From positions 1 through 64,000 of the IMG/VR virus record IMGVR_UViG_3300042870_001850: a DNA stretch of 64,000 nucleotides. One strand, given 5' to 3'. The position numbers and the translations under genes are program-made. Positions within the stretch are counted from its first letter, which is position 1; the number at the start of each line of letters is the position of its first letter. This document shows positions 44,927-64,000 of the stretch, piece after piece. This DNA comes from a virus. The notes beneath the pieces were generated by a model. That model saw only the letters and a list, made by a program, of their open reading frames with translations, did not search any database and was not told the origin of the DNA.

Positions 44927-45379
44927 ATGACAAGATTTGTTGGAACTCCGCTACGCGGAACTGAATTTGCTAACGCCGGTGATGAAGCTATCTCCGCCCG
45001 TGTTGGCACAGATTCGTATCCACGAGTACGCATTGATGCAGGCGGCAGGATTACATGGTCATCCGGAGCAGCAACTGGAGACACCACTTTATATAGAAGT
45101 GGCAGTGACACGTTAGTAACTGACGATGTCTTTAAGGCATTACAAGGCATAGTCACATTAGTAACAGACGGCGCGCCTACTCAAGCGCTGCCAAACGGTG
45201 CAATTGCAATTGACACTACCAACAGCATATTCTATTTTCGTTCAGAAAACACTTGGCAGCTAGTAAGCGGTGGTGGCTCTGTTACTGGAGACATAGACGG
45301 TGGAAATCATTTGAATGATATCCAAGAAGCAGAAGTAACTAACTACGTATTCGCGTCATTTGACGGAGAGGAGCTGTAA
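44927..45379 (+). CDS. virion structural protein
   Basis: ORF track (from 44888); GAGG RBS favours start at 44927. Confidence 0.65.
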   Translation: MTRFVGTPLRGTEFANAGDEAISARVGTDSYPRVRIDAGGRITWSSGAATGDTTLYRSGSDTLVTDDVFKALQGIVTLVTDGAPTQALPNGAIAIDTTNSIFYFRSENTWQLVSGGGSVTGDIDGGNHLNDIQEAEVTNYVFASFDGEEL

Positions 45380-48300: not shown

Positions 48301-49365
48301 AAAGAAAATGGTATTTATACCGTTACCGCAGTTGGAAGCGTCAGCGCTCCTTGGGTGGTAACCAGAGCAACTGATGCAGACAACAACCCATCAGGTGAAA
48401 TGGAAAATGGAGACTTCTGCTTCGTAACTGGTGGTTCAACTAACTCTGGCTACGGATACATCAATAACTCTACTGCAAGCCCAATTGTCATTGGAACTGA
48501 CGACATTACTTACGCAGTATTCAATGCGGCTCAAGTCGTCACTGGAGGCACTGGTCTAGCGTTTGATGGGAATATTCTCAATGTTGGAACTGCATCAACC
48601 AGCAGAATTGTTGTCAACGCAGACAACATTGATCTCGCCTCTGGAGTTGCCACAATCGGCACCTACAAGTCAGTAACAGTTGATACCTACGGCCGAGTAA
48701 CTGCTGGAACAAACCCAACAACGCTTTCTGGATACGGCATCACTGACGCAGCGCCAATCAATGACGCATCATTTACGGGAACATTCTCTGCTCCTTCTGG
48801 AACTATCACTAGCACGATGATTGCCGATGGAACTATCGTCAACGGCGACATCAATGCTTCTGCAGGCATCGCGCTTAGCAAACTTGCTACAAGCACCGCC
48901 GGTAACATTATTGTCTACAACTCGTCTGGTGTTCCGACAGCAGTAGCAGAAACAGGAGACGTCACAATCTCCGACACTGGCGTTACAGCAATTGGCACAG
49001 GAGTAATCGTCAACGCGGATGTTTCCACAACTGCAGCAATTGACCTTGGTAAACTGGCTGATATTTCAACTAACGCGCAAACAGCAAGCTACACACTCGT
49101 CTTGGCAGACAAGAATAAGCTAGTTGAAATGAGTGTCGCTTCTGGAAACACTTTAACAGTTCCGCCAAACGTAGATGTTGCATTCCCAGTAGGTTCTCAA
49201 ATTAGAGTTCTTCAAACAAACACTGGTCAATGCACACTTACTGCAGGCGCTGGTGTTACGATAAATGGTACGCCAGGTCTTAAGCTTAGAACTCAGTGGG
49301 CATCTGCTACACTGATTAAACGAGCAACAAATACTTGGGTAGCAGTAGGAGACCTTTCAGCATGA
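45379..49365 (+). CDS. long tail fibre with Mtd-like N-terminal domain and internal duplications
   Basis: RIQLKR....W...N..L..GEIGYETD..KFKIGDG; repeated SPTFTG, TLTNKTLTSP, DPTADRTITIPDATGT. Confidence 0.85.
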   Translation: MAGARIQLKRATASQWTSANTVLFAGEIGYETDANKFKIGDGTTAWTSLSYFNGNLSGSNLNDLLDVTITSAANGDFLRWSGTAWINDAVNLGTDTAGSFVESLIAGTGVTLTNNSGESSTPTIAIGQSVATNTTPTFAGLTLNGNITFEGTTADDFETVLAITDPTADRTITIPDATGTVALNGSIALGTDTTGNYVNDVTAGTGVTVTHTPGEGSSPTVAIGQSVATSASPTFANVTISSVPTSDTHAATKAYVDYHAAGIVWHDAVKLATNAVLPGTPTYSNGTSGVGATLTATANARLSIDGANATTNDRVLVKDQADATQNGVYKVTAQGSVSVPYVLTRATDFDTSTPYEIIGVTGDAVYISSGSYNANQGYITTSTGTGTDGAHVLGTDNLTFSQFTGTATFSAGTGIAISGNTINVQTANAGRIVVNADDIDLATVTRTDTSGSAGKSFVQSFTTDSYGRVTGAVTADTAITLGTDTSGSYVESLTAGTGITLSNNSGEGASPTVAVTANTYDAYGASSTHAGLTEAHGATGAVVGTTNTQTLTNKTLTSPKVNEDVVLTSTATELNILDGATLSTTELNYVDGVTSAIQTQLDAKAPLASPTFTGSVTLPDNTVALGTKTTGDYVATITGGTGVSSTAATTGEGTTHTLSIGQAIATTDSPTFAGLTVNGASVVFEGATANDFETTLSVTDPTADRTITIPDATGTVALTSDVTTHANLTEAHGATGAVVGTTNTQTLTNKTLTSPKINEDVVLTSTATELNYVDGVTSAIQTQLDAKAPLASPTFTGTPTLPTGTIATTQTAANSTTAVATTAFVTTADNLKANIDSPTFTGTVAGITKTMVGLGNVDNTADTAKPVSTAQQTALDLKANIASPTFTGTVTLAADPGSALQAATKQYVDNVVSGVNFHESVVAATTGNLAGTYNNGTSGVGATITKATNGSIGTIDGATVIVGSRILLKSQTDPKENGIYTVTAVGSVSAPWVVTRATDADNNPSGEMENGDFCFVTGGSTNSGYGYINNSTASPIVIGTDDITYAVFNAAQVVTGGTGLAFDGNILNVGTASTSRIVVNADNIDLASGVATIGTYKSVTVDTYGRVTAGTNPTTLSGYGITDAAPINDASFTGTFSAPSGTITSTMIADGTIVNGDINASAGIALSKLATSTAGNIIVYNSSGVPTAVAETGDVTISDTGVTAIGTGVIVNADVSTTAAIDLGKLADISTNAQTASYTLVLADKNKLVEMSVASGNTLTVPPNVDVAFPVGSQIRVLQTNTGQCTLTAGAGVTINGTPGLKLRTQWASATLIKRATNTWVAVGDLSA

Positions 49366-50681
49366 GCATGACATCTGGTGACGTAGAGAGTGGTGGCAAA
49401 CAGCCGACTGCGCCCGTAATTGGCACACCAACTTGGGTATCGAGCACTGTCGCTTCAGTAGCTTTTACTCCGTCAACATATACTGGTAAAGGCACAATCT
49501 CTTACACAGTAACTGCAAGCTCTGGTCAAACTGGAACTGGATCTTCAAGTCCTATTCAAGTCACTGGGTTAACCGCTGGCTCAACAGTTACTTTCACTGT
49601 CACAGCTGTTTCAGTTACTGGCGTTCAGTCTAGTGCATCTGGCACAAGCGCATCGCTTGTCATGGGTATTGCTCCGTCTGCTCCAACAATCGGAACAGCA
49701 TCCATAGTCCAGAACGTCGATAGAAACATTGACGTCCCGTACACTGCAGGATCTACAGGAACCTCTGGCTCTGTAACATACACAGCCACTTCTTCTCCCG
49801 GCGGAATTACAGCAACTGGCGCGTCACCAATTCGCGTCTCTGGTCTTACAGCAGGCACTGCATACACATTTACAGTTACCGCGTCTACAATATACGGCAG
49901 CGCCGCATCTTCTGCATCTAACTCTGTGACTGCAGGAAACAGGCCATCAGGCCTAGCGGCTCCTACTGCTACAAACAACGGCCAGACCAGCGGCTACACT
50001 GTCAGTGTAGGTAGTTGGAGTGGAACAGGGTCAACTACAGGCTTCACTTTTACCGCTTCCACTGGTCAAACTATCAGTACAAGCGGCGGCAGCCCAAGCT
50101 ATTACGAATGGGCTATATCTCCTCTGGGCACCGCGCGAACATTTACGGCTACAGCGACAAACGCTTACGGTACATCGGCAGCATCTGCTGCGTCTGCTGC
50201 AGTGGCAAACGGGTTCAGGCCCGGAGGAAGCGGTGGCCAGTGGAGCAGTTTCTCCATCGCAGCAGGAAACGCCCTAGTAACAGTCACTTTTGCGATGAGT
50301 GCCGGTGGAACCGGAGCAGAAACGTATACTATTCGCGTACATAGAGTGAGTGACGGCGCTGTTATTTCCACTGTCAGTGGTGTCACTGCCTCACCGGTTA
50401 CTTTCACTGGTTTGACGAACGGCACTGCGTACTATGCCCGAGGAACTGCCGTAAACGCCTATGGCACTAGCCTAGACTTTCAGACAGGCAATGTCACCCC
50501 TGTTGCACCTCCGTATTTCCCTCCTTACTTTCCTCCGTATTTCCCTCCTTACTTTCCTCCGTACTTTCCTCCGTACTTTCCTCCGTATTTCCCTCCTTAC
50601 TTCCCACCTTACTTTCCTCCGTATTTCCCACCTTTCTTCCCACCGCACTTCCCACCTTTCTTCCCACCAGGATTTAAGTAA
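49362..50681 (+). CDS. multi-FN3 virion-associated protein with C-terminal (PPxF)14 tail
   Basis: FN3-like repeats (SPI.V.GLTAG..YTFTV.A); ATGA overlap gives start 49362. Confidence 0.85.
   Translation: MSMTSGDVESGGKQPTAPVIGTPTWVSSTVASVAFTPSTYTGKGTISYTVTASSGQTGTGSSSPIQVTGLTAGSTVTFTVTAVSVTGVQSSASGTSASLVMGIAPSAPTIGTASIVQNVDRNIDVPYTAGSTGTSGSVTYTATSSPGGITATGASPIRVSGLTAGTAYTFTVTASTIYGSAASSASNSVTAGNRPSGLAAPTATNNGQTSGYTVSVGSWSGTGSTTGFTFTASTGQTISTSGGSPSYYEWAISPLGTARTFTATATNAYGTSAASAASAAVANGFRPGGSGGQWSSFSIAAGNALVTVTFAMSAGGTGAETYTIRVHRVSDGAVISTVSGVTASPVTFTGLTNGTAYYARGTAVNAYGTSLDFQTGNVTPVAPPYFPPYFPPYFPPYFPPYFPPYFPPYFPPYFPPYFPPYFPPFFPPHFPPFFPPGFK
50508..50675 (+). repeat. 14 x 12-bp coding tandem repeat: (PPYF)10 PPFF PPHF PPFF PPGF
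   Basis: Units differ at synonymous third positions (CCT/CCG/CCA, TAT/TAC, TTC/TTT). Confidence 0.97.
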
Positions 50682-50708
50682 ATAGCAAATCACTTTCGCG
50701 AGTAGCAC

Positions 50709-51320
50709 ATGCACGACGACTACAAATTAGAAGCAGCAGATCCAGCTAACATTGTGATCATCGAAAACTTTATTTCTGCTGAACATCTTGATGCTATTTA
50801 TGACTATTGCTACAGCATCACTGAATGGGAATCTCAGTCTATTGCGCAAACTGATAAAATCAGCACGGGCGCAACGATGAAGAAGAATTCGCCAGAAGTC
50901 TATGACATAATGTCGTCATACCTAAATAAAGTGCAAAAGGCTGTTGAATATAAGTTCGGCAGAAAGCTAGAGCCAAGTGTGCCAGGTATTCGTCGCTGGG
51001 ATGCTGGAGAACGCCAAGGGCCGCATGCTGATGGAGAAACAGTGCACGGCGTCGCCACAGACACATATATTGTCGACTACGGTTCAATAATGTATATAAA
51101 TGACAACTACGACGGTGGAGAGCTTTACTTTCCAGCATATGGAATTGACTTTCAACCTAAAGCTGGAACACTTGCATTTTTTCCGTCAAGTACGTACTAC
51201 GTCCACGGCGTAAAAGAAGTGATTGCTGGCGTACGATACACTTCACCGCACTTTTGGGTCCCAACAAAACATAAACGACTAATTGAAATGACAAAAAATG
51301 AACAACAATCAGTCCATTAG
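50709..51320 (+). CDS. prolyl-hydroxylase-like 2OG-Fe(II) oxygenase
   Basis: HAD, YINDNYDGGELYF, HGV, RY. Confidence 0.9.
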   Translation: MHDDYKLEAADPANIVIIENFISAEHLDAIYDYCYSITEWESQSIAQTDKISTGATMKKNSPEVYDIMSSYLNKVQKAVEYKFGRKLEPSVPGIRRWDAGERQGPHADGETVHGVATDTYIVDYGSIMYINDNYDGGELYFPAYGIDFQPKAGTLAFFPSSTYYVHGVKEVIAGVRYTSPHFWVPTKHKRLIEMTKNEQQSVH

Positions 51321-52773
51321 ACCTATATACAATCTTCACATTCCTAGAACATCTGGCACTAATACGCTGTTTGCTCTGCAGCGAGAAATCGCGCGCATGC
51401 CAGAAGCTAATAAGAACAAACTAAATAAGCATAAAGAACCAGAGTACGCGGATCTTAATATGTATACTCCAGACGTCTTAGAGTTCATCTATGACCACGA
51501 CAAGATGAAGAATTATAACTACATCTCAGGACATTTTGCCACAAATCCAATACACGAAATCGACAACTTACTTACGTTTTCTATAGTGAGAAATCCAGTA
51601 GATCAGTTTGTAAGCACTATTGCGTACAGATGCATGACCGCGCGAGTGCCGTTTACTTCACACGAACTGGACCTGTACATAGATGGCATGTACAAAATAT
51701 GGGGAGAATTTGAAGGATTCTCTGGCATTGACAATCCGCAATCGCACTTTCTTTCACAAAAACTTGCCGCGTTCGAGCTAGAAAAAAGCAATAGGGGAAA
51801 CGGAAGCTTAAAAGGAATGGCATTTGTAGGCTCACCGCAAAGTCTTGCCGACGTTCGTCAATTTACAGATGACATGATCATTAGCACACTTGAGAATCGG
51901 CACATTACAATCGATAAAATAAATGTGGTACTGCAAAAACAATTCGGTATCACTATAGAAAACGATACAAGAAAAGTCAATAGCATTATGAAGCTTCGTT
52001 TTGAGATCTCTAAAGATCAAATGAAAAAGATGAAAGCCAAACTAGAACTTGACGAAGAAGTGTACCAGCACGTGAAACAGCAAGAGAAAAACGTGCCAAG
52101 TAGAATAAATAAAGCTAAAAAAGAGCCTCAACAAAAAGTCCAGTTGGCGCCACAAAAAGAGTCAATAGCGCAGATGTTTGGCACAGATTCTTCTATGATA
52201 CGCGTCATTGACAATTTTATTCCTAGCAACGATATCGAGAAGATCGTGGAAATGGCTTCTAAAATAACTGAATGGCGCCACGAAGAGCCTGGAACAGAGT
52301 GGCATGTACGGTTGTCGGATGCTGATAGCCTAGTTAAATTAAATTCAGATACTTACGGTATTCTTGAAACGTACGCAAGGGCAGCCAAGAATTGCGCAGA
52401 AGAACTGTTTAACTGCACTCTTAAGTTTAGAAAACCAGCGCTCGTAAGATGTATAGCAGGAATGCACCAACCGGAGCTGCACACTAACAAACAAAATCTA
52501 GACGGCTATCTTAAAGAAGGAATTGGCGACGGCGATCTGTCAGCTGTCATGTATCTCAATGACGACTTTGAAGGCGGCGAGCTCGTGTTCCCGCAGCACG
52601 ATGTGCGCGTAACACCCACAGCGGGGCGTATTGTAATCTATCCTGGGGACAACGCGTACCTCCACTACGTCGATCAGGTCACTGCCGGTGTTCGCTGGGC
52701 GTGTCCGCTATTCTTTTCAGTAGACGAAGAAGCATGTCAACACACAAAAGAACAAGAGAAAAAAGATGTCTAG
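51298..52773 (+). CDS. sulfotransferase-like domain fused to a 2OG-Fe(II) oxygenase domain
   Basis: LHIPRTSGT, SGHF, VRNPVDQFVS; C-terminal HTN, YLNDDFEGGEL, HYV, RW. Confidence 0.8.
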   Translation: MNNNQSIRPIYNLHIPRTSGTNTLFALQREIARMPEANKNKLNKHKEPEYADLNMYTPDVLEFIYDHDKMKNYNYISGHFATNPIHEIDNLLTFSIVRNPVDQFVSTIAYRCMTARVPFTSHELDLYIDGMYKIWGEFEGFSGIDNPQSHFLSQKLAAFELEKSNRGNGSLKGMAFVGSPQSLADVRQFTDDMIISTLENRHITIDKINVVLQKQFGITIENDTRKVNSIMKLRFEISKDQMKKMKAKLELDEEVYQHVKQQEKNVPSRINKAKKEPQQKVQLAPQKESIAQMFGTDSSMIRVIDNFIPSNDIEKIVEMASKITEWRHEEPGTEWHVRLSDADSLVKLNSDTYGILETYARAAKNCAEELFNCTLKFRKPALVRCIAGMHQPELHTNKQNLDGYLKEGIGDGDLSAVMYLNDDFEGGELVFPQHDVRVTPTAGRIVIYPGDNAYLHYVDQVTAGVRWACPLFFSVDEEACQHTKEQEKKDV

Positions 52774-53389
52774 TCCATGGAAAATTGCACCAGGGCATTT
52801 TGGAGACTCTCCAGAAAACATTGTCACAATAGAGAACTTCGTTGAACTAGAAGATCTTAAAATTATTCAAGAGTTCTGCCCAACTATCAACGAGTGGAAT
52901 AACGAAAAAGAATCCGTGTATGCAGAAGATGGTACATGTCTTTACAATGCAGACTACTGGAATGATCGCCAGTGCAGCAATGATATTCTTGAAAGAATCA
53001 ATCCTCAGGTATGGAACATCATTGACAAATACATAACTAAAATGCAATTGGTCATTGAAGATAAGTTTAATTGCAAAGTAAGTTCTAGACCCCCAGTAAT
53101 CATGAAATGGCGGCCTGGAACTGAACAGCGCCCGCACGCAGACAAGCAATTAAACGATGGCCAACCGAACGCGTTCCCAGACTACGACCTCAACTCATTG
53201 ATTTACTACAATGACGACTTTGAAGGCGGTGATCTTTTCTATCCGCAACACGACATCGTAGTTCGCCCAAAACCTGGCCTCGCGGTGTTTCACCCAGGAG
53301 ATGTAAACTATCTTCACGGAGTGTCAATGGTAACGAGTGGATACCGATACACGACACCGTCTTTCTACACGATTGAAGAATTCATATGA
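52766..53389 (+). CDS. prolyl-hydroxylase-like 2OG-Fe(II) oxygenase
   Basis: HAD, YYNDDFEGGDL, HGV, RY. Confidence 0.9.
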   Translation: MSSPWKIAPGHFGDSPENIVTIENFVELEDLKIIQEFCPTINEWNNEKESVYAEDGTCLYNADYWNDRQCSNDILERINPQVWNIIDKYITKMQLVIEDKFNCKVSSRPPVIMKWRPGTEQRPHADKQLNDGQPNAFPDYDLNSLIYYNDDFEGGDLFYPQHDIVVRPKPGLAVFHPGDVNYLHGVSMVTSGYRYTTPSFYTIEEFI

Positions 53390-53928
53390 TATTCGCAGTT
53401 ATATCAAATTTTATAGATAGAGAAACATGCAACAATCTTACTGATCTTTTATCTACTTGCGAGTGGGAATCAGTTGTAAGAAATGACGTTGACATTTTTA
53501 GCATAATGACAACTGATATTGACGAGATACACGCTATTGGATCAAAGCTGTGGAATGCGCTCGAGTCTCAGGTGTCTAAAGTAGCTAAACGTCAAATCGT
53601 AAAAGAAACGTCGGAGGCGGCACTAGCGTACACACGATATAGCACTGGCCAAGGACTAATGTGGCATTCTGATGGCGGTGACGGCGCGCAGACAAATACA
53701 TCAGGAAGAAAGATCGACGTCTCGGCTATTGTATACTTAAACGATGAGTATAGCGGTGGAGAGTTGTCTATGGCAAAAGCAAATAGCCGAGTAAACAACG
53801 TCTTTATGGTTAAGCCATCTACAGGGGACCTTGTCATAATTGATGGCGCAACGTGGCACGAGGCACTGCCAGTAGCTAGCGGAACAAAATACGTGATGTC
53901 TGCAAGATGGCAGCTAGATCAAGGATAG
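53386..53928 (+). CDS. prolyl-hydroxylase-like 2OG-Fe(II) oxygenase
   Basis: HSD, YLNDEYSGGEL, HEALPV..GTKY. Confidence 0.9.
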   Translation: MIFAVISNFIDRETCNNLTDLLSTCEWESVVRNDVDIFSIMTTDIDEIHAIGSKLWNALESQVSKVAKRQIVKETSEAALAYTRYSTGQGLMWHSDGGDGAQTNTSGRKIDVSAIVYLNDEYSGGELSMAKANSRVNNVFMVKPSTGDLVIIDGATWHEALPVASGTKYVMSARWQLDQG

Positions 53929-53937
53929 AACAGTTTT

Positions 53938-54702
53938 ATGAGTACCCCAGCAAACCCTAACCACATAAAAATAATAGATAATTTCGTAGAACCAGAAGAT
54001 CTTGCAGTGCTCGACAACTTGTGTAGAAGCAATGCAGGCAACGTTTGGTGGAGTGAAAAAAGTATGCCAACGCAGGACTACGTGCATTTTGCACTCGGGG
54101 ATTACAAAGAGCATTGCGCTAAAGCCCGCAGCGAGGGGGCAAATGCAAATGTGCATCCGCTCTTGGGCAAGTACATGAACAAATTAAGAACAATTATTAG
54201 TTACGAAGCCGGGCATCAGCTTGTTCCGATATTTGATTTTTGTCGAATGGAGACACCTGTCGGTGGGTCTTGCCCTGGGCACACAGACTCAGAAGGCCAC
54301 GGTATAACTGGGACAGCGTTTCTTCCAGAGTACTCGCCGCTGCATGTCTATGAGCCAAACTTAATAGATATGTCGGCAAACATTTATGTTAATAACGATT
54401 TTGAAGGCGGTCAGCTCTACTTCGAGCAGTACGACCTCACTGTTAATCATACTCCCGGCCAACTCGTGTGGTTTCCCGGTTCGCATGAATACATGCATGG
54501 TGTTCATGAAATAAAGAGTGGCAGCCCTCGGTGGAATATTATTACTCATTTTGCACGGCCAAAATTGATAGAACTTCACAGTATGATCCACAACATGTAC
54601 GTAAAGCTCAATGAAGATCAAAAAGCCGAATTCCCAGTCTCCTGGGACATAAACACTCACATGCCACGTGGAATTCGTGGAGACAACAACTATGATTACT
54701 AG
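53938..54702 (+). CDS. 2OG-Fe(II) oxygenase
   Basis: HTD, YVNNDFEGGQL, HGV, RW. Confidence 0.9.
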   Translation: MSTPANPNHIKIIDNFVEPEDLAVLDNLCRSNAGNVWWSEKSMPTQDYVHFALGDYKEHCAKARSEGANANVHPLLGKYMNKLRTIISYEAGHQLVPIFDFCRMETPVGGSCPGHTDSEGHGITGTAFLPEYSPLHVYEPNLIDMSANIYVNNDFEGGQLYFEQYDLTVNHTPGQLVWFPGSHEYMHGVHEIKSGSPRWNIITHFARPKLIELHSMIHNMYVKLNEDQKAEFPVSWDINTHMPRGIRGDNNYDY

Positions 54703-54758
54703 TGCCATATTAAGCACAATCGTCAAGATGGCAGCTAGAACAAGGATAGAATAGTTTT

Positions 54759-55541
54759 ATGGAAACAGCAAGCCCAGAGCATATAAAAGTAATTAACAAT
54801 TTTGTTGAGCCTGAAGACCTTAAAATTCTAGATGAACTATGCAGATCATCTGTAAATTATGACGACTTCAAAGATAATGACAAGTGGTGGTTCCATAAAA
54901 AGCCAGGTCCTGAGTACATTAAGCACGCGTCTGGCGCGTACAAGCAGCTGTGCCTTGACTCGATGGAACAGCCGTATGGAAAAAACGTGCACCCATTGCT
55001 TCTTAAATATATGAAGAAACTTGAAAAAGTAGCAAGCTATGAGACCGGCCATAAGCTTGTGCCAATGTTTGGCTTCAACAGGCATCAAACTTTAGAAGGT
55101 GGATTCTGCCCCGGACATCAGGACGCAGAAGCAGAGAAAAACGGTGAAGGCGAATATCTCCCAGAGTATGCGCCACATCACACATTTGAGCCGTGCTTAA
55201 TAGACACATCAGCAAATATCTACATCAATGCAGAGTATGAAGGTGGCCAGCTCGAGTTTGAGCATTACGGAATTAGAATTGAGCACACTCCAGGGCAGCT
55301 TGTTATTTTTCCCGGCGCTCTTGAATACATGCACGGAGTCACACCGATTACTAAAGGCACACGATGGAATCTAATTACACATCTTGCACGACCAAAAGTT
55401 GTTGAAATGCATAGTTTGATCTATAACCTTTACAATGAACTTGGCGAAGACAAGCAAAGTCTATTCCCAGAAGACTGGCGCAATCGCCAAGACCCGAGAG
55501 GAACATTAGGCGAACACGTTCACTGGGAACCAGAGCAGTAA
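54759..55541 (+). CDS. 2OG-Fe(II) oxygenase, tandem paralog of 53938
   Basis: HQD, EGGQL, HGV, RWN.ITH.ARPK. Confidence 0.9.
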   Translation: METASPEHIKVINNFVEPEDLKILDELCRSSVNYDDFKDNDKWWFHKKPGPEYIKHASGAYKQLCLDSMEQPYGKNVHPLLLKYMKKLEKVASYETGHKLVPMFGFNRHQTLEGGFCPGHQDAEAEKNGEGEYLPEYAPHHTFEPCLIDTSANIYINAEYEGGQLEFEHYGIRIEHTPGQLVIFPGALEYMHGVTPITKGTRWNLITHLARPKVVEMHSLIYNLYNELGEDKQSLFPEDWRNRQDPRGTLGEHVHWEPEQ

Positions 55542-56926: not shown

Positions 56927-57563
56927 TGATGCAAGAACTACAAACGTTGGTTCACAAAAAAACATACTAGTAGTAGAAGACTATCTTTCTAAGTCAATAT
57001 GCAAAGATCTTAGCGAAGCAATGGTGCGTACAGCATGGCGAAGGTGCCGGTCTGACTCAGAAGCCGAAAACTATAACAGCATGCAAAATATATCTTTTTT
57101 AGCAAATGACATGGAAGACGACATTGTAAAAATTGCCAGTTACGAATTCGGCGTAAATTTGTCAGTATTTGCGGGGAAAGGCAATTTCCATAAATGGGAC
57201 GTCGGAGACAGTCTTTCTCTCCACACAGACGCAGAAAAAGAAGACTGTACTGCGCCATTGGCAAGTTACATAGATATGTATCAACCGCCAACTGTTGTTT
57301 CATACACAGCTTTAGTATACATCAACGATGATTACCAAGGTGGCGAGCTTGTGTTTCCGCAGCACGGTCTAAAGATAAAACCTAAATCTGGGACATTAAT
57401 AATGTTCCCATCGACTTGCATGTACCCGCACGAAGTAGCAGAAGTCACCTCTGGAGTTAGGTACACATACTCTATGTTTATGGCTAGCGCTTCTGTAGTT
57501 CAAGCTTTTATGGAAATGTACGCTCTGGTGACGCTAAACGAAGACAGAAAAAACGGCAAATAA
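56919..57563 (+). CDS. 2OG-Fe(II) oxygenase
   Basis: HTD, YINDDYQGGEL, HEV, RY. Confidence 0.9.
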   Translation: MVNDARTTNVGSQKNILVVEDYLSKSICKDLSEAMVRTAWRRCRSDSEAENYNSMQNISFLANDMEDDIVKIASYEFGVNLSVFAGKGNFHKWDVGDSLSLHTDAEKEDCTAPLASYIDMYQPPTVVSYTALVYINDDYQGGELVFPQHGLKIKPKSGTLIMFPSTCMYPHEVAEVTSGVRYTYSMFMASASVVQAFMEMYALVTLNEDRKNGK

Positions 57564-57644
57564 AGTACGCTGTCAATTAGGAATTTGTACCGCTACTTAG
57601 GTATAGTAGTAAAGACAGCAGCTATACAGCAAAACGGAGTAAAA

Positions 57645-58364
57645 ATGGATTTTCAATACATAGGAGATCAAAAGTTTGGAATTATTCTTTATAAGAATGC
57701 TTTACCAAAAGAACTGCGACTTCCCGAAAGACTAGAAGAAACAATAGGTAATAGCACAACCGCACCGTTTATGTGGATGGAAGCTCTTGTCGGCGATGCG
57801 CAAAAAATGCCCGAGTACCGTGATTGCGTAGACTGCAAGATGGGTCCTACGCATATTCAACATCTTCCTCCGCAGTTTTCTGAAATGAAAAACATTTACA
57901 ATGACACAGTACTTCGCCTAACTGAGTGCTTGCGCGATTACGAGTCTCGGTACAACATAAAAATGGATTTTATGGAAGCGATTAACTACGTCCGCTACCA
58001 TACTGGGCAACATTTCGCTGTGCATACAGATCATGGATTTTCATATAACTGTACTGTTTCTTCAATAATGTATCTAAATGACGGCTATGAGGGTGGCGAA
58101 CTGTACTTCCCATTCTTAGACATCACGGTTGTGCCAGAGTACGGAGACATTGTGTTTTTCCCGTCAACTTACATTTACGCACATGCTGCAAAAGCAGTCA
58201 CTAGCGGTACAAAGTACGCCGCGGTGACTATGTTTGACTATAACGATAGAACGCATAAGCAGGGCTATGGAGAAAATATTGACGGCACTAAAGCCACGGA
58301 AGGCGCTGGACTGCCAACATATGGTAGCCAGCAAAACGCTGATGGAAGATTTTTAGCGCAATGA
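57645..58364 (+). CDS. 2OG-Fe(II) oxygenase
   Basis: HTD, YLNDGYEGGEL, HAA, TKY; GGAG RBS favours start at 57645. Confidence 0.9.
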   Translation: MDFQYIGDQKFGIILYKNALPKELRLPERLEETIGNSTTAPFMWMEALVGDAQKMPEYRDCVDCKMGPTHIQHLPPQFSEMKNIYNDTVLRLTECLRDYESRYNIKMDFMEAINYVRYHTGQHFAVHTDHGFSYNCTVSSIMYLNDGYEGGELYFPFLDITVVPEYGDIVFFPSTYIYAHAAKAVTSGTKYAAVTMFDYNDRTHKQGYGENIDGTKATEGAGLPTYGSQQNADGRFLAQ

Positions 58365-59062
58365 AAGTGCGCCTCACAAGAAACCACCAGTCTGCGCCAC
58401 GCATTGCGCAGTCTCGCGTTAAGCGCGATTGGATGGATGAAACGTACAACAAGCACGCGTACCAGTGCATGCCTATGACTGCCGCTAATACAAACGGCTG
58501 GGAGTTGATTCTTGAAGAAGATCTTGTTGTCCAATGGGACGGCGGCAACAACCCTGTCACAGTAGTTAGTGGAGGCGAACAAAACGGGCGTCAAGTAGCA
58601 TTTCCTTCTATTATTGGGATCATCTCAATTGGGATGGGTTGGACAGTCAATACTGAAGAAGGCTATGCAACGTGGCTTACCGGGTCTCCTAATTACTTCG
58701 TCGACGGCGCTGTTCCGCTTGCCGCGGCTATTCCCAGTTCATGGTGGCCAGATGAAGTGCAAATGAACTGGAAGATTACTAAAATAGGCGAACCAGTGAC
58801 CTTTCCAGCGGGGTCGCCATTTTGTTTTTTTACCATCTACAAAGAAGATCTACTGCCATCTGTTGAGTTTGAAGTGTCTAACCTATGGGATAAGCCAGAG
58901 CTTATTGAAGCCAGGGTCAAGTACAGCAACGTAAAAATGAAAAATAACGCTGACAACCCGTGGACATGGACTAAGGGAATTAAAACTGGCGTAGATGCTG
59001 ATGGCAATAAGATAGGTCCAGGATTTACTGGAATAAATAAGCTCAACTCTCCGCATATGTGA
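58361..59062 (+). CDS. DUF6065-like protein
   Basis: RDWMD....HAYQC.P...AN..GW, MNWKIT, PFCF. Confidence 0.75.
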   Translation: MKVRLTRNHQSAPRIAQSRVKRDWMDETYNKHAYQCMPMTAANTNGWELILEEDLVVQWDGGNNPVTVVSGGEQNGRQVAFPSIIGIISIGMGWTVNTEEGYATWLTGSPNYFVDGAVPLAAAIPSSWWPDEVQMNWKITKIGEPVTFPAGSPFCFFTIYKEDLLPSVEFEVSNLWDKPELIEARVKYSNVKMKNNADNPWTWTKGIKTGVDADGNKIGPGFTGINKLNSPHM

Positions 59063-59105
59063 TAAGATAGCAAAGTACTAGCTCACCTCAACAAGAATTG
59101 GACAT

Positions 59106-59339
59106 ATGAATATGAAGTTTACTGTAACTCTAACTAATGAAGAAAAAAAGGCAATTTACAGTCGTGCCGTACTAGACTGTGAAAGACATCTCATTACTGC
59201 GCTTATCGCCGAAGGACATGATCCCGATACTTTCGATGAGGCAACATTTGTTCCGGCGGAGACTCTTGGTGATGAATTTATTGCAAGGAATCTAACGCAA
59301 CTTGCTCGCCTTAAAGCCAATGTCGCAGATCTAGGATAA
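59106..59339 (+). CDS. small hypothetical protein
   Basis: ORF track. Confidence 0.7.
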   Translation: MNMKFTVTLTNEEKKAIYSRAVLDCERHLITALIAEGHDPDTFDEATFVPAETLGDEFIARNLTQLARLKANVADLG

Positions 59340-59350
59340 TAAGAACTGCC

Positions 59351-59569
59351 ATGGCACTTTCAACAGCCCAAATAGAAAAAGCTAAAGTAAAAGCGTTAGA
59401 CTACCTCGAGTTTTCAATATTCTCAATGGCTTTACTATTAAACGTCGATCTTGAGACTTTAGACGAGACATTTGTAAATCCAGCAGATAAAGACACACAA
59501 CTGGACCTATGGAGTGCATACGAGTCGCTCATTGTTCAAGTAAAGTCGCACGCAAAGTTAGTAGACTAA
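59351..59569 (+). CDS. small hypothetical protein
   Basis: ORF track. Confidence 0.7.
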   Translation: MALSTAQIEKAKVKALDYLEFSIFSMALLLNVDLETLDETFVNPADKDTQLDLWSAYESLIVQVKSHAKLVD

Positions 59570-59571
59570 TT

Positions 59572-59856
59572 ATGAAAATTACTCCTAAGGTGCCTAAAAA
59601 AATTCCACTTCTCGAGGCCGCATTTAAGACTGGTAAGTATCAAATTTGTCCGGACGTCAGTTTTGCCCACCCGCGTATTGTTGAGCCAACGCACAACCCA
59701 GACCGTGACAATCAAGTTGCTCGTTGGGTGCCAGAGCAGTTTTCTTACCAAATGCCAGACGGTGGTACATTTTTTTGCGATCTCTTGCAAAATGGCGACC
59801 CAAAAACACCATGGGACACGACTCAAGCAGATGAGTTAACAGAAGAAGACTTTTAA
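59572..59856 (+). CDS. small hypothetical protein
   Basis: ORF track (from 59509); non-overlapping ATG at 59572 preferred. Confidence 0.65.
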   Translation: MKITPKVPKKIPLLEAAFKTGKYQICPDVSFAHPRIVEPTHNPDRDNQVARWVPEQFSYQMPDGGTFFCDLLQNGDPKTPWDTTQADELTEEDF

Positions 59857-60164
59857 TGAAAAGAACAAGAATAACTGCGGGCGAAAACTTGTATGACGCG
59901 ACAAAAGATCTTGAGAGAACAGAAGGAAAACTTTTAGAGCTTATGTACATCGCAGGACTTGATAACACGGACGTCGACACTGTTACAATTGACGAACTTA
60001 TTGAAGCCCTTAGAAAAGGGTTTGTCTATACTTCTGCTGTTGGAAATTCTTATAACGTTGGAGCTACTGCCTTTCTTAGACAAGAAAACTTTCATTTAGT
60101 TATCCAAGCTCGTAAATATTGGTGGTACCGCCAACTTGCAAAAGGAGCACTAAGCCGTGGATAA
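59856..60164 (+). CDS. small hypothetical protein
   Basis: TAATG coupling. Confidence 0.7.
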   Translation: MKRTRITAGENLYDATKDLERTEGKLLELMYIAGLDNTDVDTVTIDELIEALRKGFVYTSAVGNSYNVGATAFLRQENFHLVIQARKYWWYRQLAKGALSRG

Positions 60165-60891
60165 CATAGTACTTAGAACAGCGACTGTTACGCGGCTGAT
60201 TAGCAACACGCTTGCCACAAGTACCTTTGAAGAAGGAAAAACGTACCGCGAAGATTCATCTGCACGCGCGTTGGCAGAATACGCTACTTTTAATATTGAC
60301 AGACGGACAGTTGCAATCGGTGGCAGTGAAGAAATCTGGCTATTTGATTTGATGAAAGAAATGGACCCTTCGTGGTACGAAATGATCAACTCAGTGCAGA
60401 CAATAACTGAAATGGCCTTTTTAATGAAAAATCCTCGTAAAATTCTTTCATTTTGTGCATGCATTCCGTCTACTATGTGTTTATGGCTATCAAATATGGC
60501 CGATCCAGAAACTGAATTGACATTTGTCAATAACCCGATGCTTGACGCGTACGAGCAGCACATGATACCTGTCAGTGACACTCACACATATTCAAAGTAT
60601 TCAGTAATTGATTATGATGACTTGGAAAATGGTATTGAAGACAAGTATGATTTTATTGCAGCTATGGCGTGGGACATTGTAAGCGATCCAGATTTGCAAC
60701 GCCAAGCTGTCGATGCACTTGCGCCGGGTGGTATTTTATGTGTTGCTCTTACAAATAATGGAGGCAAGCTGTACACAGACTCGTATCATGCGCATCCATA
60801 CACTGAATTTCATGAGAATCTTGGGAAGATGGACGGGCATACATACCATATTCCGGCCTTGTACGCGCACACACTATTCATAAAGAACTAA
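60157..60891 (+). CDS. divergent SAM-dependent methyltransferase-like protein
   Basis: KNPRKIL, KYDFI, DALAPGGIL; glycine-rich motif I is degenerate. Confidence 0.55.
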   Translation: MDNIVLRTATVTRLISNTLATSTFEEGKTYREDSSARALAEYATFNIDRRTVAIGGSEEIWLFDLMKEMDPSWYEMINSVQTITEMAFLMKNPRKILSFCACIPSTMCLWLSNMADPETELTFVNNPMLDAYEQHMIPVSDTHTYSKYSVIDYDDLENGIEDKYDFIAAMAWDIVSDPDLQRQAVDALAPGGILCVALTNNGGKLYTDSYHAHPYTEFHENLGKMDGHTYHIPALYAHTLFIKN

Positions 60892-61014
60892 TACTTATCG
60901 GCAGCAATGCCGTTGACTGGTTAACGAGTGCCGCAAAAAAACTATCTTCAACGTCTGACATTAGTGCGCCAGTTGCGTTCTTTGATGCTGTTTTAATGTA
61001 TAATTTGCATTGGC

Positions 61015-61680
61015 ATGGACACTAAGACGCTTCTTTCTAATTTACAAGTAGTAGATGAATACATACCGAAGAATGATGTCAAAGTTCTTCTTGATTTCTG
61101 TGAATCATTTCACGAGTGGGACAACGGGTATGATAGATGTCCTGATCTTTCAAGCGTTGACATTGATGGCAAATACCGATACGATATTGAAGAAATGCAT
61201 ATAGCGCAAAACCATAGCTATTTGCACCCTCTTGTTCTTAAGTACCAAAAAAAGATAGAAGAGTACGCGAGTGCTGTATACGGAAGATCTCTTACTACGT
61301 ACCACAATATGCATCTTCGCAAGTATTTTGAAGGCGACAAGTTCGACGAGCACTTTGACTCTGAAGGAAAAGACGAAGGCAAGATTCAACGACTGCCAGG
61401 ATACAGCTCTTCTGACAAAGTTCCGGCAGCGCTAATAGAAATTGCAGTTAACATGTATCTAAACGATGATTATTCTGGTGGAGAAATCTACTTTCCAGAT
61501 CACGATGTGTCAATAAAACCAAAACCAGGGCAACTTATAATGTTTCCAGGTGGGCACGAGTTTAAGCACGGAGTCCGCACAGTAACTAGCGGCAGCAGGT
61601 ACACTATGGCTTCGTTTTTGACAACACCTAAGCTACTAATGCTGCACGCGGCAGCGTACAACGGAGCAGCCAGTGAGTAG
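61015..61680 (+). CDS. 2OG-Fe(II) oxygenase
   Basis: HFD, YLNDDYSGGEI, HGV, RY. Confidence 0.9.
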   Translation: MDTKTLLSNLQVVDEYIPKNDVKVLLDFCESFHEWDNGYDRCPDLSSVDIDGKYRYDIEEMHIAQNHSYLHPLVLKYQKKIEEYASAVYGRSLTTYHNMHLRKYFEGDKFDEHFDSEGKDEGKIQRLPGYSSSDKVPAALIEIAVNMYLNDDYSGGEIYFPDHDVSIKPKPGQLIMFPGGHEFKHGVRTVTSGSRYTMASFLTTPKLLMLHAAAYNGAASE

Positions 61681-62527
61681 CGCACATCATCTAGGCGGAG
61701 GGACTGTAGTATTCCGCAACGCAATCACAGTTCCGCAAAATACAATTATCCCGTATCTTGAAGAACTAAAAGAACAGTCACGCAGCGAAATGTTTACTAT
61801 CGTCAAAGATGAAGACGGCAATCCACTGCATGCTCTTAATCAAGGTGGGTTTATCTACGATCTTGAAAAGATCAATCGCGCTCCGGTTCGAATGATGAAC
61901 CTTACGCATCCGTTTTTCCAAGAGTGTGAGAATGCTTTGTATGACGCGCTTTTGCAGTACATTGAAATGTTTCCTGCAGTTCTTCAGTCTCTGTGGTGGA
62001 GAAGTGAGGGCCACATTCTTGCGTATGACAAAGGCGCTGCTCTAGGATTTCATTCAGACAACGACGTCAACTACCGCTACGGTGCAGTTCCGCCTACAGA
62101 GCACGCAACACGGAATGTGCTAAGCGCGTTGATCTATTTCAATGACTGCATTGATGAAGGCGAAGAAGAGACTCAGTATTCTTTTTCTGGCGGCCACATG
62201 AGTGTTCCGTACTTTAATGCGGACATCAAACCGCGCACGGGGGACATTTGCATGATGCCAGCAAACTACATCGGTGCTCACGAGATTGCAGAAGTCACGC
62301 GAGGCACTAGATACTCATATCTTGGGTGGTTTGCGCAGGGATCAGAAGACGCCAATAAAGGAGTAAATCCTCAGCATGAGAAAATGTCTGAATCGATTGG
62401 CGGACAATACTGGATGAAAACAATTATTGAAGACTATGAAAAGTATATCTATGACAAATATCCGGACAATGCTACTAGGCCTTCGCATCTTCTTGCAGTG
62501 TCTAATAGACAGAAGGACCACGTGTGA
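61673..62527 (+). CDS. 2OG-Fe(II) oxygenase
   Basis: HSD, YFND, AHEI, RYSYLGW. Confidence 0.88.
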   Translation: MSSAHHLGGGTVVFRNAITVPQNTIIPYLEELKEQSRSEMFTIVKDEDGNPLHALNQGGFIYDLEKINRAPVRMMNLTHPFFQECENALYDALLQYIEMFPAVLQSLWWRSEGHILAYDKGAALGFHSDNDVNYRYGAVPPTEHATRNVLSALIYFNDCIDEGEEETQYSFSGGHMSVPYFNADIKPRTGDICMMPANYIGAHEIAEVTRGTRYSYLGWFAQGSEDANKGVNPQHEKMSESIGGQYWMKTIIEDYEKYIYDKYPDNATRPSHLLAVSNRQKDHV

Positions 62528-63408
62528 TGCAAAATAACAACGTAGAAGCTCAACATCTTGGCGGCGGAGTTGTCTTATTTAAGAACGCTCTTAAGTGGGA
62601 CTGGGACAAAGTAATAGATCTCGCTGAAGAAATATGTGCAAGAGAGCACAGCAGTATGTATACTGAGTCTGTCGATCCCGAAACTGGAGAATTTGCTTAT
62701 CTTAATCGAAGTGGTTTTTACTTTAGACCGGAGTCTGTTGATGAAATGCCGCGCCGTGGGTCTCGTATTCATCAAGACGATAGACCAGAGGTTGTTGAAT
62801 TTTTGACTTTTCTAGAAGAAGCTAGAGATTCTTATTTGATGAAGTACATGGAAATGTTTCCTATTGCGTTCAAAACGATTTGGTGGAAAATTAAAGGTCA
62901 TATAGTTTCATACAAACCTGGCGGGTATCTAGGCCCACATTCAGACACCAGCTCTGACTGGGCTTACGGAGTTCACGAGCCTAAGGATCAGCTCGCAACT
63001 CGGACAACTGTAGCTTCGCTTATTTACTTTAATAGCTCAGTTGACACTGAAAAAGAATTAGACGGATCAAACTTCACAGCTGGGCATCATTACTTTAACT
63101 ACCTTGATATTTTAGTCAAACCAGAACGTGGCGATCTTTTAATGTTCCCGTCAAACTATATGGGAGCGCACGAAGTGCAGCCTGTCGGCGCAGGAATTAG
63201 GTACTCATATCTTGGTTGGTACTCGCACGGCACGCCAAATCCAGCAGTAAGTGAAAGTGTTACAGACCCTCTTACTGAGCCAGAGCTTGCGAAAATCGCA
63301 ACTAACGTGTACATGCCGTATCTTAAGCGTGACTTCGTGGCACACTTAAAGAGCAAAGGTATGACTAGCGTAGACATCCCTGGCTTTACTTTTGGAGATG
63401 AGCAATGA
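62524..63408 (+). CDS. 2OG-Fe(II) oxygenase, paralog of 61673
   Basis: HLGGGVV, HSD, AHEV, RYSYLGW. Confidence 0.88.
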   Translation: MMQNNNVEAQHLGGGVVLFKNALKWDWDKVIDLAEEICAREHSSMYTESVDPETGEFAYLNRSGFYFRPESVDEMPRRGSRIHQDDRPEVVEFLTFLEEARDSYLMKYMEMFPIAFKTIWWKIKGHIVSYKPGGYLGPHSDTSSDWAYGVHEPKDQLATRTTVASLIYFNSSVDTEKELDGSNFTAGHHYFNYLDILVKPERGDLLMFPSNYMGAHEVQPVGAGIRYSYLGWYSHGTPNPAVSESVTDPLTEPELAKIATNVYMPYLKRDFVAHLKSKGMTSVDIPGFTFGDEQ

Positions 63409-64000
63409 ACATCAACCACTTAGGCAACGGCATTGTTCTTTTTGAGAATGCGTTAGACGTTGACGACGATTTAGTGTCTTCATATATGTCGTACTTGCAA
63501 TCAACAAACAAAGAAGTGCACTTTTTTAACACAGACGATTCTTCTGAAGTTGTAAATACTTCAGGCTACAAGTTTGACAAGAATGAAGTAAATCTAGCAC
63601 CTGACAGATTTATAAGAACTGTGACGAACAGTACTCCAAAAGAATTCGTTGATCTTGTACAGCGCTACGAGGATGTTCTATACTTATGCTTAGTTGAGTA
63701 CTGCAAGATTTTTCCTGTCGCTGTTGAGGCGATAACATGGAGATCGCGTGGAAGTATAGCAACGTACAAGAATGGCCAGCATATTGGGTGCCACTCAGAC
63801 TCGTCCGTTCCGTGCGTGATTGGCGAAATGCCGTCTAATCAAATTGCGTTACACACGACACTCACTGCAAGCCTTGTCATGAACAGCGATTTTGTAGGTG
63901 GAGAAATTGGATTTAGAGCTTGGGGAACGGTGGTTGACGTAGGAGCTGGAAGCATTCTGTATTACCCGTCTACGTACGTTGGCGCTCACGAGGTTCTTCC
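63405..64000 (+). CDS. 2OG-Fe(II) oxygenase, 3' end truncated by the window (not in ORF track)
   Basis: Manual translation MNINHLGNGIVLFENAL...HSDS...DFVGGEI...YPSTYVGAHEV; ATGA-coupled. Confidence 0.85.
   Translation, partial: MNINHLGNGIVLFENALDVDDDLVSSYMSYLQSTNKEVHFFNTDDSSEVVNTSGYKFDKNEVNLAPDRFIRTVTNSTPKEFVDLVQRYEDVLYLCLVEYCKIFPVAVEAITWRSRGSIATYKNGQHIGCHSDSSVPCVIGEMPSNQIALHTTLTASLVMNSDFVGGEIGFRAWGTVVDVGAGSILYYPSTYVGAHEVL

Follow-up and report, generated by a model that had tools for sequence, protein, structure and literature searches.

A Pro-Pro-aromatic-Phe repeat protein followed by an array of 2OG-Fe(II) oxygenases in an uncultured lake phage and related phages: a candidate protein-tailoring cassette

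Since about 2007-2010, expanded sets of 2OG-Fe(II) oxygenases have been noted in phages with no substrate known for them, and the proposed roles include DNA repair, the drawdown of 2OG and the making of secondary metabolites (PMC3037559, PMC2938197). One such set, the gp41-gp54 region of Synechococcus phage Syn9, has many distinct 2OG dioxygenases in tandem (PMC2938197) and a protein of dUTPase fold bearing a conserved Cys, directly behind the tail-fibre genes, as does the locus described here. The Syn9 array has tryptophan halogenases and a JmjC/MINA member, whereas no Pfam match to either was found in any of the 20 genes of our island. Furthermore, no PF19541 match at E 0.01 was found in Syn9, and its array region contains no Pro-aromatic repeat, so that a PPxF tail does not accompany every oxygenase array. 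The authors who described the Syn9-type arrays proposed the synthesis of secondary metabolites, not virion modification (Iyer, Abhiman, de Souza, Aravind 2010, PMC2938197). In bacteria, operons combining beta-hydroxylase, PhyH and sulfotransferase genes with collagen-like or tail-collar proteins were predicted to carry out hydroxylation and then sulfation (PMC2938197). These operons are comparable to the island studied here in that hydroxylases, together with a sulfotransferase or, here, a sulfotransferase-like domain, lie beside a repetitive or fibre-type protein, but they are cellular and involve Gly-rich tripeptide repeats, whereas the present island is carried by a phage and combines a PPxF repeat with PF13640-type oxygenases. 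The chlorovirus PBCV-1 also encodes a P4H-fold 2OG oxygenase together with a Pro-rich repeat protein. PBCV-1 has (PAPK)n-type repeats instead of Pro-Pro-aromatic-Phe ones. In addition, PBCV-1 has one such enzyme and a eukaryotic host, whereas here there are 13 enzyme genes in which the proline-contacting Tyr is not conserved.

The DNA analysed, hereafter the window, comprises the first 64,000 nucleotides of the 83-kb virus record IMGVR_UViG_3300042870_001850. It carries a fibre cassette whose first gene encodes a 494-aa tail-fibre-like protein (43385-44869, + strand; matches to PHROG tail fibre and virion structural families), and which includes a large tail fibre of 1328 aa (45379-49365, +; PHROG tail fibre matches) of family F1, present in 84 loci. 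The C-terminal domain of this fibre (...TWVAVGDLSA) is kept in the fibre genes preceding repeat genes in other phages. Its stop codon is overlapped by 4 nt (ATGA) by the start of a gene encoding a 439-aa FN3-repeat protein (49362-50681, +; ORF call and Pfam, with homologues at loci L008, L076, L077 and L107), which is the candidate substrate. This protein gave an fn3 match (Pfam, E 5.4e-10), and four FN3-like modules of about 95 aa each were judged by eye. Its C-terminus consists of 57 residues, (PPYF)10-PPFF-PPHF-PPFF-PPGF-K, encoded by 14 units of 12 nt plus a final Lys codon (50508-50678, +), with a 12-nt period detected by Tandem Repeats Finder at 50508-50668. Five DNA versions occur among the ten PPYF units and differ at third codon positions only, indicating that the peptide, not the DNA, is conserved. 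Both the FN3 repeats with their tail and the synonymous variation had been described in an earlier reading made from the sequence only, and the present analysis agrees. No other Pro-aromatic tract occurs in the 83-kb record. A literature search for papers containing the strings PPYFPPYF or FPPYFPP found none, and no C-terminal sorting-domain family (PEP-CTERM-type models, NCBIfam) matched three repeat proteins at E 0.01.

The next ATG (50709) follows the end of the repeat gene after a gap of 27 nt and begins a run of 13 co-oriented genes, joined mostly by overlaps of 1-23 nt, which give 14 matches to the 2OG-Fe(II) family PF13640. Twelve of the 14 lie above the curated cut-off of 27 bits, and the remaining two score 25.5-26.2 bits. 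Gene number, domain number and gap are those of the sequence-only reading, which had also taken the array to comprise at least 13 genes and to run on; it has exactly 13 and ends at record position 64184, 184 nt beyond the window. It is followed by a glutathione-peroxidase-like gene (record 64213-64833) and an opposite-strand replication module. Contigs from four other lake-water runs span the junction from the end of the repeat to the first 2OG genes, which rules against an assembly artefact. No excess of terminator-like or promoter-like sites over shuffled sequences was observed between the fibre genes and the array, a result compatible with a single transcription unit, though no proof of it.

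Two oxygenases of the array can be considered its core: the most conserved gene of the island, found in 156 of 168 loci (52766-53389, +), and a second one found in 138 loci, which overlaps the start of the DUF6065 gene (57585-58364, +; PF13640). Accessory 2OG-Fe(II) oxygenases, all assigned by PF13640, are encoded on the + strand at 50709-51320 (a type present in 42 loci), 53386-53928 (E 1.9e-12), 53938-54702 (under the Pfam cut-off), 54759-55541, 56907-57563 and 61015-61680, together with a two-domain protein matching PF13640 in two stretches (55541-56926, +; E 1.2e-21). Three long-type oxygenases (61673-62527, 62524-63408 and 63405 to record position 64184, all + and PF13640) close the array. 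The remaining gene (51298-52773, +) fuses a sulfotransferase-like N-terminal half to a 2OG domain. This half had been called sulfotransferase-like before; it has no Pfam match of its own. Stand-alone homologues, to which it could be aligned with E 3e-4, match Sulfotransfer_2 (E 1.8e-5), and it retains both PAPS-loop-like motifs, HIPRTSGTN and VRNPVDQFVS. The H-x-D...H...R/K residues that had been attributed to the enzymes in general are intact in 13 of the 14 domains, the exception being the C-terminal domain of 51298, where H-x-N (H-T-N) is found.

The structural model of the 52766 enzyme (pLDDT 94.1) is predicted to have the fold of prolyl/lysyl hydroxylases, a double-stranded beta-helix, with the viral collagen prolyl hydroxylase vCPH of PBCV-1 as its nearest structure (5c5t, E 5.8e-10), in line with the initial suggestion that these enzymes resemble prolyl 4-hydroxylases. 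The top structures (5c5t, 3itq, 8k0f and 2jig) gave E values of 6e-10 to 2e-8, and the neighbours after 5c5t are B. anthracis P4H, P3H1, Chlamydomonas P4H, LH3 and PHD2. By sequence profile, P3H1 (2.4e-8) and B. anthracis P4H (6.7e-6) were matched, with PBCV-1 vCPH marginal (E 0.57). B. anthracis P4H (3itq, 5hv0) and P3H1/LH3, the nearest solved sequences, have the DSBH fold and the iron triad in common with the core enzyme, from which they differ in showing about 15% identity and a conserved Tyr where it has Gln; they act on collagen-like GXY repeats or EF-Tu. A main role in nucleic-acid modification (Tet/JBP) was considered and rejected: all PF12851 matches were below cut-off and beneath the PF13640 matches, and the structural neighbours of the core enzyme are protein hydroxylases.

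Residues H124, D126, H184 and R194 of the core enzyme are invariant in 47 orthologues. In Cr-P4H, C-P4H-II and PHD2, the target proline is contacted by a Tyr located three positions ahead of the first iron-binding His (Tyr140, Tyr427 and Tyr310, respectively; PMC9676403). This Tyr is absent at its position in all 14 domains, and the core enzyme has an invariant Gln121 aligned to the Tyr of B. anthracis P4H; proline is therefore not assured as the target. The repeat might instead be a docking or assembly element, a polyproline-II ligand recruiting the enzymes or anchoring the protein to the fibre, with the enzymes acting on other virion or host-envelope targets. Tyr-lined grooves in the peptide-substrate-binding domain of C-P4H do bind proline-rich peptides (PMC9676403), and the fibre C-terminal domain just upstream of the repeat gene is conserved. 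However, the island's enzymes, of about 200 aa, have no separate peptide-binding domain and nothing favours docking directly, so we consider this explanation very improbable.

The DUF6065 gene noticed earlier within the run (58361-59062, +; E 8.8e-43) is a conserved marker of the island. Its modelled structure is that of a dUTPase fold, matching dUTPases with E 1.6e-4 and probability 1.00, and Cys36 is invariant. Downstream lie four small conserved ORFs of 77, 72, about 95 and 102 aa (59106-60164, +) and a conserved island protein of family F6, present in 23 loci (60157-60891, +). The latter had been described as methyltransferase-like; no Pfam, PHROG or NCBIfam family matched it, and a possible class I methyltransferase is suggested by language-model look-alikes below the reliability mark. 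The islands of relatives also contain TauD, PhyH and 2OG-FeII_Oxy_5 members, families usually made up of small-molecule enzymes.

The sequence-only reading had asked whether 2OG arrays follow repeat tails. A search seeded on a DNA pattern for (PPYF)3 recovered at least 119 viral contigs, nearly all of which encode C-terminal (PP[YFW]F)n-K tails, carried on two unrelated kinds of N-terminal domain. A 2OG gene was found within the locus for 98 of 121 repeat genes, and the nearest one was always downstream (98 vs 0), on the same strand as the repeat gene in 47 cases and on the opposite strand in 51. In nearly all repeat loci without a 2OG gene, the downstream flank is shorter than 2.3 kb. In the reverse test, seeded on DUF6065 and limited to loci whose upstream flank measures at least 4 kb, a repeat gene lay upstream in 49 of 50 loci, with the PPGFF variant counted. 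Two candidate repeat-less exceptions (L174 and L180) were discarded, as both carry a PPGFF-type tail; L170 lies on a contig of only 7 kb, too short to decide. In a divergent clade with DUF6065 only 26% identical to that of the window, the repeat was upstream in 48 of 48 testable loci, with its motif drifted to PFF and xPPxFF. Taken together, 97 of the 98 testable loci of the two DUF6065-seeded samples have a Pro-aromatic repeat gene on their upstream side. The sampled loci are related, so that these co-occurrence counts do not represent independent events. A search of 596 Gb of prokaryote genomes yielded only seven true tails, all on MAG contigs and each with a 2OG gene or DUF6065 nearby where the flank suffices; 20 of the 28 pattern matches were set aside as short internal PPFF runs in doubtful ORFs.

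In four complete genomes of 160-202 kb, all 36 PF13640 genes lie in one block of 12-20 kb starting from the 3' end of the repeat gene, and the family-A polymerase and primase of the window are absent from these four genomes (positive control included). The closest isolate, actinophage DSL-LC01, has a PolA 82.6% identical to that of the window, and neither PF13640 genes nor the repeat were found in it; in the syntenic slot, it carries collagen-like fibres along with a tryptophan halogenase and a glycosyltransferase. Megablast and tblastn queries with the repeat protein, DUF6065 and the region against isolate phage records gave no match, or distant cyanophage 2OG genes only. An identity as a T4-like cyanophage was rejected, as the replication genes match DSL-LC01 and a WhiB-like gene is present; the virus, an uncultured lake phage, probably infects actinobacteria. 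The proposal that the tail is the substrate of the array had rested on adjacency, and it now draws on co-occurrence in both directions, co-absence from the nearest isolate and a second replication backbone.

Part of the adjacency is accounted for by the order of genes and modules. Fibre cassettes terminate with the repeat gene and the array comes after the entire fibre module; where a phage has two repeat genes, only the copy closing the fibre module lies next to the array, the other being 7-9 kb away and adjoining no oxygenase. The island could be a cluster for auxiliary metabolism or secondary metabolites, with small molecules or host proteins as its targets, housed in a permissive post-fibre slot, with repeat and island inherited or swapped as a block. 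The repeat-less Syn9 array after fibre genes, the secondary-metabolite role proposed for such arrays (PMC2938197), the TauD and PhyH members in relatives, the other tailoring-type enzymes in the same slot of DSL-LC01 and the lack of the canonical proline-contacting Tyr all fit this explanation. On the other hand, the repeat is kept in practically every testable island although DUF6065 has diverged to 26% identity, and the pairing survives changes of strand, intervening genes, N-terminal domain, motif and replication backbone, of which there are two. In addition, no repeat without an island was found where the flank allowed the test, and the nearest solved relatives of the core enzyme are nearly all protein prolyl/lysyl hydroxylases. 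We consider module order without a substrate link rather unlikely.

Many repeat carriers are small (111-160 aa). In some distant relatives, the tract is followed by Hint-like ...GGYLVHNK or acidic extensions. These features, together with a short repeated core and the many adjoining tailoring enzymes, would suit a RiPP-like route, in which the repeat would serve as a precursor with multiple cores and, after oxidation, would be cut or released as small modified peptides. The carrier or leader would then be the FN3 or small N-terminal domain. However, searches of the island with Pfam, PHROGs and NCBIfam revealed no protease, leader-recognition element, cyclase, exporter or peroxidase-type cross-linker, and the cross-linking, extensin and RiPP ideas raised initially found no support. 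Furthermore, the units have no cleavage-site spacers between them, and the gene sits in a fibre operon and encodes FN3 modules typical of virion surface proteins. Such a route appears improbable.

On balance, we lean slightly towards a phage-borne protein-tailoring cassette in which the repeat is the substrate of the downstream oxygenases. Starting from the observed gene order, domain identities, folds and co-occurrence, we infer a substrate relation, a series of chemical steps and a location on the virion as follows. The last gene of the fibre operon would produce a surface protein with four FN3-like modules and a Pro-Pro-aromatic-Phe polymer ending in Lys, and the oxygenases, probably made from the same long transcription unit, would hydroxylate this polymer during its synthesis at proline and perhaps at the terminal lysine or aromatic side chains. 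Two enzymes, those of the 52766 and 57585 types, are conserved throughout, and lineage-specific paralogs would add more positions. The fused sulfotransferase-like domain and the possible methyltransferase may decorate the new hydroxyls, DUF6065 may act as a conserved helper, and the peroxidase-like gene may keep oxidative by-products in check. The fibre would thereby gain a sticky tip or a polyproline-II rod of greater stiffness and solubility. Thirteen enzymes look far too many for a four-residue repeat, which counts against the repeat as substrate.

A specific genome-encoded polymer travels with the oxygenase array in essentially every testable case, and this pairing makes the question of the array's substrate simple to test experimentally. 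If the repeat is indeed the substrate, post-translational hydroxylation of virion proteins would be added to phage biology, along with a new repeat-polymer material and a family of small oxygenases acting on very hydrophobic Pro/Phe/Tyr sequences. A bolder picture, which we regard as possible though doubtful, is that abundant lake phages carry at the tips of their fibres a Pro-aromatic polymer that is heavily oxidised and possibly also sulfated and methylated. Built by a dozen dedicated oxygenases, it would be the equivalent in bacterial viruses of extensins or mussel-glue proteins, and the diversity of the paralogs would tune adhesion or host range. If true, this would provide the long-sought function of one or more classes of 2OG-oxygenase arrays in phages.

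Analysis of the IMG/VR record (83,311 bp, completeness estimate 62%), whose first 64 kb form the window, revealed a fibre cassette on the plus strand from 43385, encoding proteins of 494 aa and 163 aa and a 1328-aa fibre (PHROG tail-fibre matches). The stop of the 1328-aa fibre gene overlaps (ATGA) the start of the repeat gene (49362-50681, plus strand), whose 439-aa product has four FN3-like modules (Pfam fn3, E 5.4e-10) followed by (PPYF)10-PPFF-PPHF-PPFF-PPGF-K. The ten PPYF units are encoded in five ways, all differences lying at third codon positions, which indicates that selection acts on the peptide and bears out the sequence-only reading that the peptide, not the DNA, is conserved in the repeat. 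No NCBIfam model covered the tail, and a literature search did not find the repeat strings PPYFPPYF or FPPYFPP. The fibre gene preceding repeat genes ends in a conserved ...LIKRAxxTWVAxGDxxA (window 49200-49365; also in loci L170, L174 and L180), which may be an attachment site of the repeat protein.

The array starts 27 nt after the repeat gene and is made up of mostly overlapping genes: 13 oxygenase genes with 14 PF13640 domains, DUF6065 (E 8.8e-43), four small ORFs and a 244-aa protein without known family. The final oxygenase stops at record position 64184, and is followed by a GSHPx-like gene and then by an opposite-strand replication module. The array had been described as holding at least 13 oxygenase genes and continuing further; the 13 genes were confirmed, but the array ends at 64184, so that their number is exactly 13.

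Two other open reading frames were of note for their composition. A 182-aa protein encoded beside a RecA-like gene (record 71322-71891, minus strand; 8020-8568 in L001, the locus retrieved from the window's own record) has a long (AP)n/(PA)n end; it is the record's only other Pro-rich protein, in principle a further potential target of hydroxylation. In the window, a 1116-aa ORF (17566-20916, plus strand) gave no match in the PHROG search, and the Pro-rich antisense ORF at its 3′ end (20628-20903) implies that the plus strand encodes a Gly-rich repeat at the C-terminus.

The polymerase of the window phage showed 82.6% identity to that of Actinomycetia phage DSL-LC01 (complete 129-kb genome, Dishui Lake), and the replication genes of both are syntenic. 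Just past the island, a minus-strand gene (record about 64949-65482; L001 1650-2183) encodes a WhiB-like protein (Cys-X..-C-X2-C...GVWGG); the DSL-LC01 WhiB gene is its syntenic counterpart, and it hints at an actinobacterial host. A T4-like cyanophage identity was ruled out by the DSL-LC01-like polymerase, the syntenic replication genes and the WhiB-like gene. The window stretch was found again in many lake-water metagenome runs, and the carrier is a lake phage, probably of actinobacteria.

Examination of the array enzymes showed the H-x-D...H...R/K residues in 13 of the 14 aligned window domains. In the fusion protein (51298-52773), the 2OG domain at about residues 290-491 has H-T-N instead of H-x-D, as does a near-identical copy in L107, a locus with a repeat-protein homologue; judging from these residues, iron-dependent chemistry may be altered or lost in the domain fused to the sulfotransferase-like half. 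Two orthogroups were near-universal across 168 loci, the 52766 type (core enzyme, 52766-53389; 156 loci, median identity 67%) and the 57585 type (57585-58364; 138 loci). Three long-type oxygenases at the island end were common, and the remaining ones were lineage-specific. The core enzyme model, obtained from a 47-sequence alignment (pLDDT 94.1), had as its top structural match the PBCV-1 viral collagen prolyl hydroxylase, vCPH (5c5t, E 5.8e-10), with B. anthracis P4H, P3H1, Chlamydomonas P4H, LH3 and PHD2 among further top matches, and its sequence profile matched P3H1 (2.4e-8) and B. anthracis P4H (6.7e-6). These matches place the core enzyme in the protein prolyl/lysyl hydroxylase branch. 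In Cr-P4H, C-P4H-II and PHD2, a Tyr three residues before the first His touches the target proline (PMC9676403). This Tyr was absent from all 14 window domains, with an invariant Gln at that site in the core enzyme, and the array enzymes are therefore not classed as canonical P4Hs. The resemblance to prolyl 4-hydroxylases initially noted extends to the fold and profile of the core enzyme and, in 13 of 14 domains, to the triad, but not to the proline-contacting residue.

Regarding the other island members, the DUF6065 model has a dUTPase fold and its alignment an invariant cysteine, matching the protein of dUTPase fold and conserved cysteine described by Iyer et al. in the array of the Synechococcus phage Syn9 (PMC2938197); a search of Syn9 for PF19541 at E 0.01 gave no match. 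The islands of relatives also carry TauD, PhyH, 2OG-FeII_Oxy_5, a GSHPx-like gene and a stand-alone Sulfotransfer_2 protein, of which the window's sulfotransferase-like half appears to be a relative, a weak but plausible assignment on sequence grounds.

A search with an IUPAC pattern for (PPYF)3 retrieved at least 119 viral contigs, and nearly all of those listed encoded a long C-terminal tail of the form (PP[YFW]F)n that closes with x-F-K. Among the matches listed, the tails were borne by two unrelated carriers: a small protein whose N-domain measures 55-98 aa (73 cases) and an FN3 protein 190-724 aa long (41 cases, window included). On contigs from four other lake-water runs the 3′ part of the repeat was joined to the first oxygenases. 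At window 50521-50532, contigs of the same lake runs join the repeat from other junctions, such as ...DVAYTKY (small carrier type) and ...SESLAVTPVA (type of the 539-aa L107 protein); several repeat-protein types thus coexist in one lake, with near-identical repeat DNA.

Using an HMM built from the window's own 14 domains, an oxygenase gene was detected inside the short locus for 98 of the 121 repeat genes among the matches listed; nearly all repeat loci without a match had less than 2.3 kb of downstream sequence. The sequence-only reading had asked whether 2OG arrays follow C-terminal repeat genes more often than other tail genes; among the matches listed, the nearest oxygenase was downstream in all 98 loci having one and upstream in 0, at a distance of up to 1 kb in 74, with 47 same-strand and 51 opposite-strand cases. 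A reverse test was seeded on DUF6065, which is neither repeat nor oxygenase and whose relatives are encoded by at least 581 contigs. Among the best 80 of these, which were examined, there were 50 loci whose upstream flank reached at least 4 kb, and 47 of them had a same-strand upstream repeat gene. Of the other three loci, two had a 108-aa protein ending in (xPPGFF)n-PPAFK, sited between fibre and oxygenases, and the third was a contig of 7 kb only. A second DUF6065 seed, 26% identical to the window's and sampling another clade, gave an upstream Pro-aromatic tract in 48/48 loci that had 4 kb or more of upstream flank; the motif there has changed to mixtures of PPFF and PFF and to xPPxFF pentamers. 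In loci of this distant clade (L226, L227, L288, L301, L304 and others) the tract is internal, not terminal, and is sometimes followed by a Hint-like ...FIAGGYLVHNK end, a long acidic tail or a Cys-rich ...FFCPECTKGCPC.

In four complete genomes (160-202 kb), all 36 PF13640 genes lay in one 12-20 kb block per genome, which begins at the repeat gene's 3′ end; neither a family-A polymerase nor a relative of the window's primase was found in these genomes, with the window's own record as positive control. Neither PF13640 genes nor a PP[YF]F repeat were found in the DSL-LC01 genome. Its slot equivalent to fibre, repeat and oxygenases, between exonuclease and WhiB (locus L196, DSL-LC01 record 101148-126390), holds collagen-like fibre genes, a tryptophan halogenase, a glycosyltransferase and a 2853-aa protein, which suggests that tailoring enzymes are exchanged together with the fibre genes in a single cassette. 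In cellular genomes (596 Gb) the repeat pattern occurred at 28 places; seven were true C-terminal tails, all on MAG contigs and each with adjoining oxygenases or DUF6065 where the flank permits, and the remaining matches were short internal PPFF runs without oxygenases.

The main competing explanation is that the oxygenase island is aimed at metabolites or the host, and that it and the fibre module are simply inherited together. Gene maps showed that each fibre cassette is closed by a repeat gene, directly after the large fibre gene ending in ...TWVAxGD.., and that the island follows the entire fibre module. In two-cassette phages, which have two repeat genes, only the last one adjoins the island, so that module order explains part of the 98-to-0 asymmetry. 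The sampled loci are also related by descent, their counts not being independent events. In Syn9 (locus L194, record 21068-43144), the dioxygenase/halogenase array starts one gene past the tail-fibre and fibre-assembly genes; no Pro-aromatic repeat was found in this region, where gp36 and gp38 have Gly-rich stretches. The Syn9 array, module order and kinship of the loci weaken the substrate link. This link, at first resting on adjacency only, has gained co-occurrence from both seeds, but module order accounts for part of the adjacency; we regard the competing explanation as rather doubtful. Fibre cassettes of two-cassette phages also hold a 460-aa protein (L071:5563-6951, family F28; also L038, L089 and L092) with a weak match to a wax-ester-synthase/acyltransferase catalytic domain (E 2.8e-6).

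The closest experimentally known pair is PBCV-1 vCPH with that virus's own Pro-rich repeat proteins, and the closest described gene cluster is the tandem dioxygenase array of Syn9 (gp41-gp54), an unrelated myovirus that shares the fibre-then-array order. The closest published prediction concerns bacterial operons, in which co-encoded collagen-like/tail-collar proteins would be hydroxylated and then sulfated (PMC2938197). What is new is the Pro-Pro-aromatic-Phe polymer, together with its almost obligate association with the array. RiPP-like release of a peptide from the repeat seems improbable, and a docking role of the repeat more improbable still. We lean towards the view that at least the core oxygenases act on the polymer and that its hydroxyl groups are decorated later; this would yield a modified polyproline-II rod or an adhesive at the fibre.
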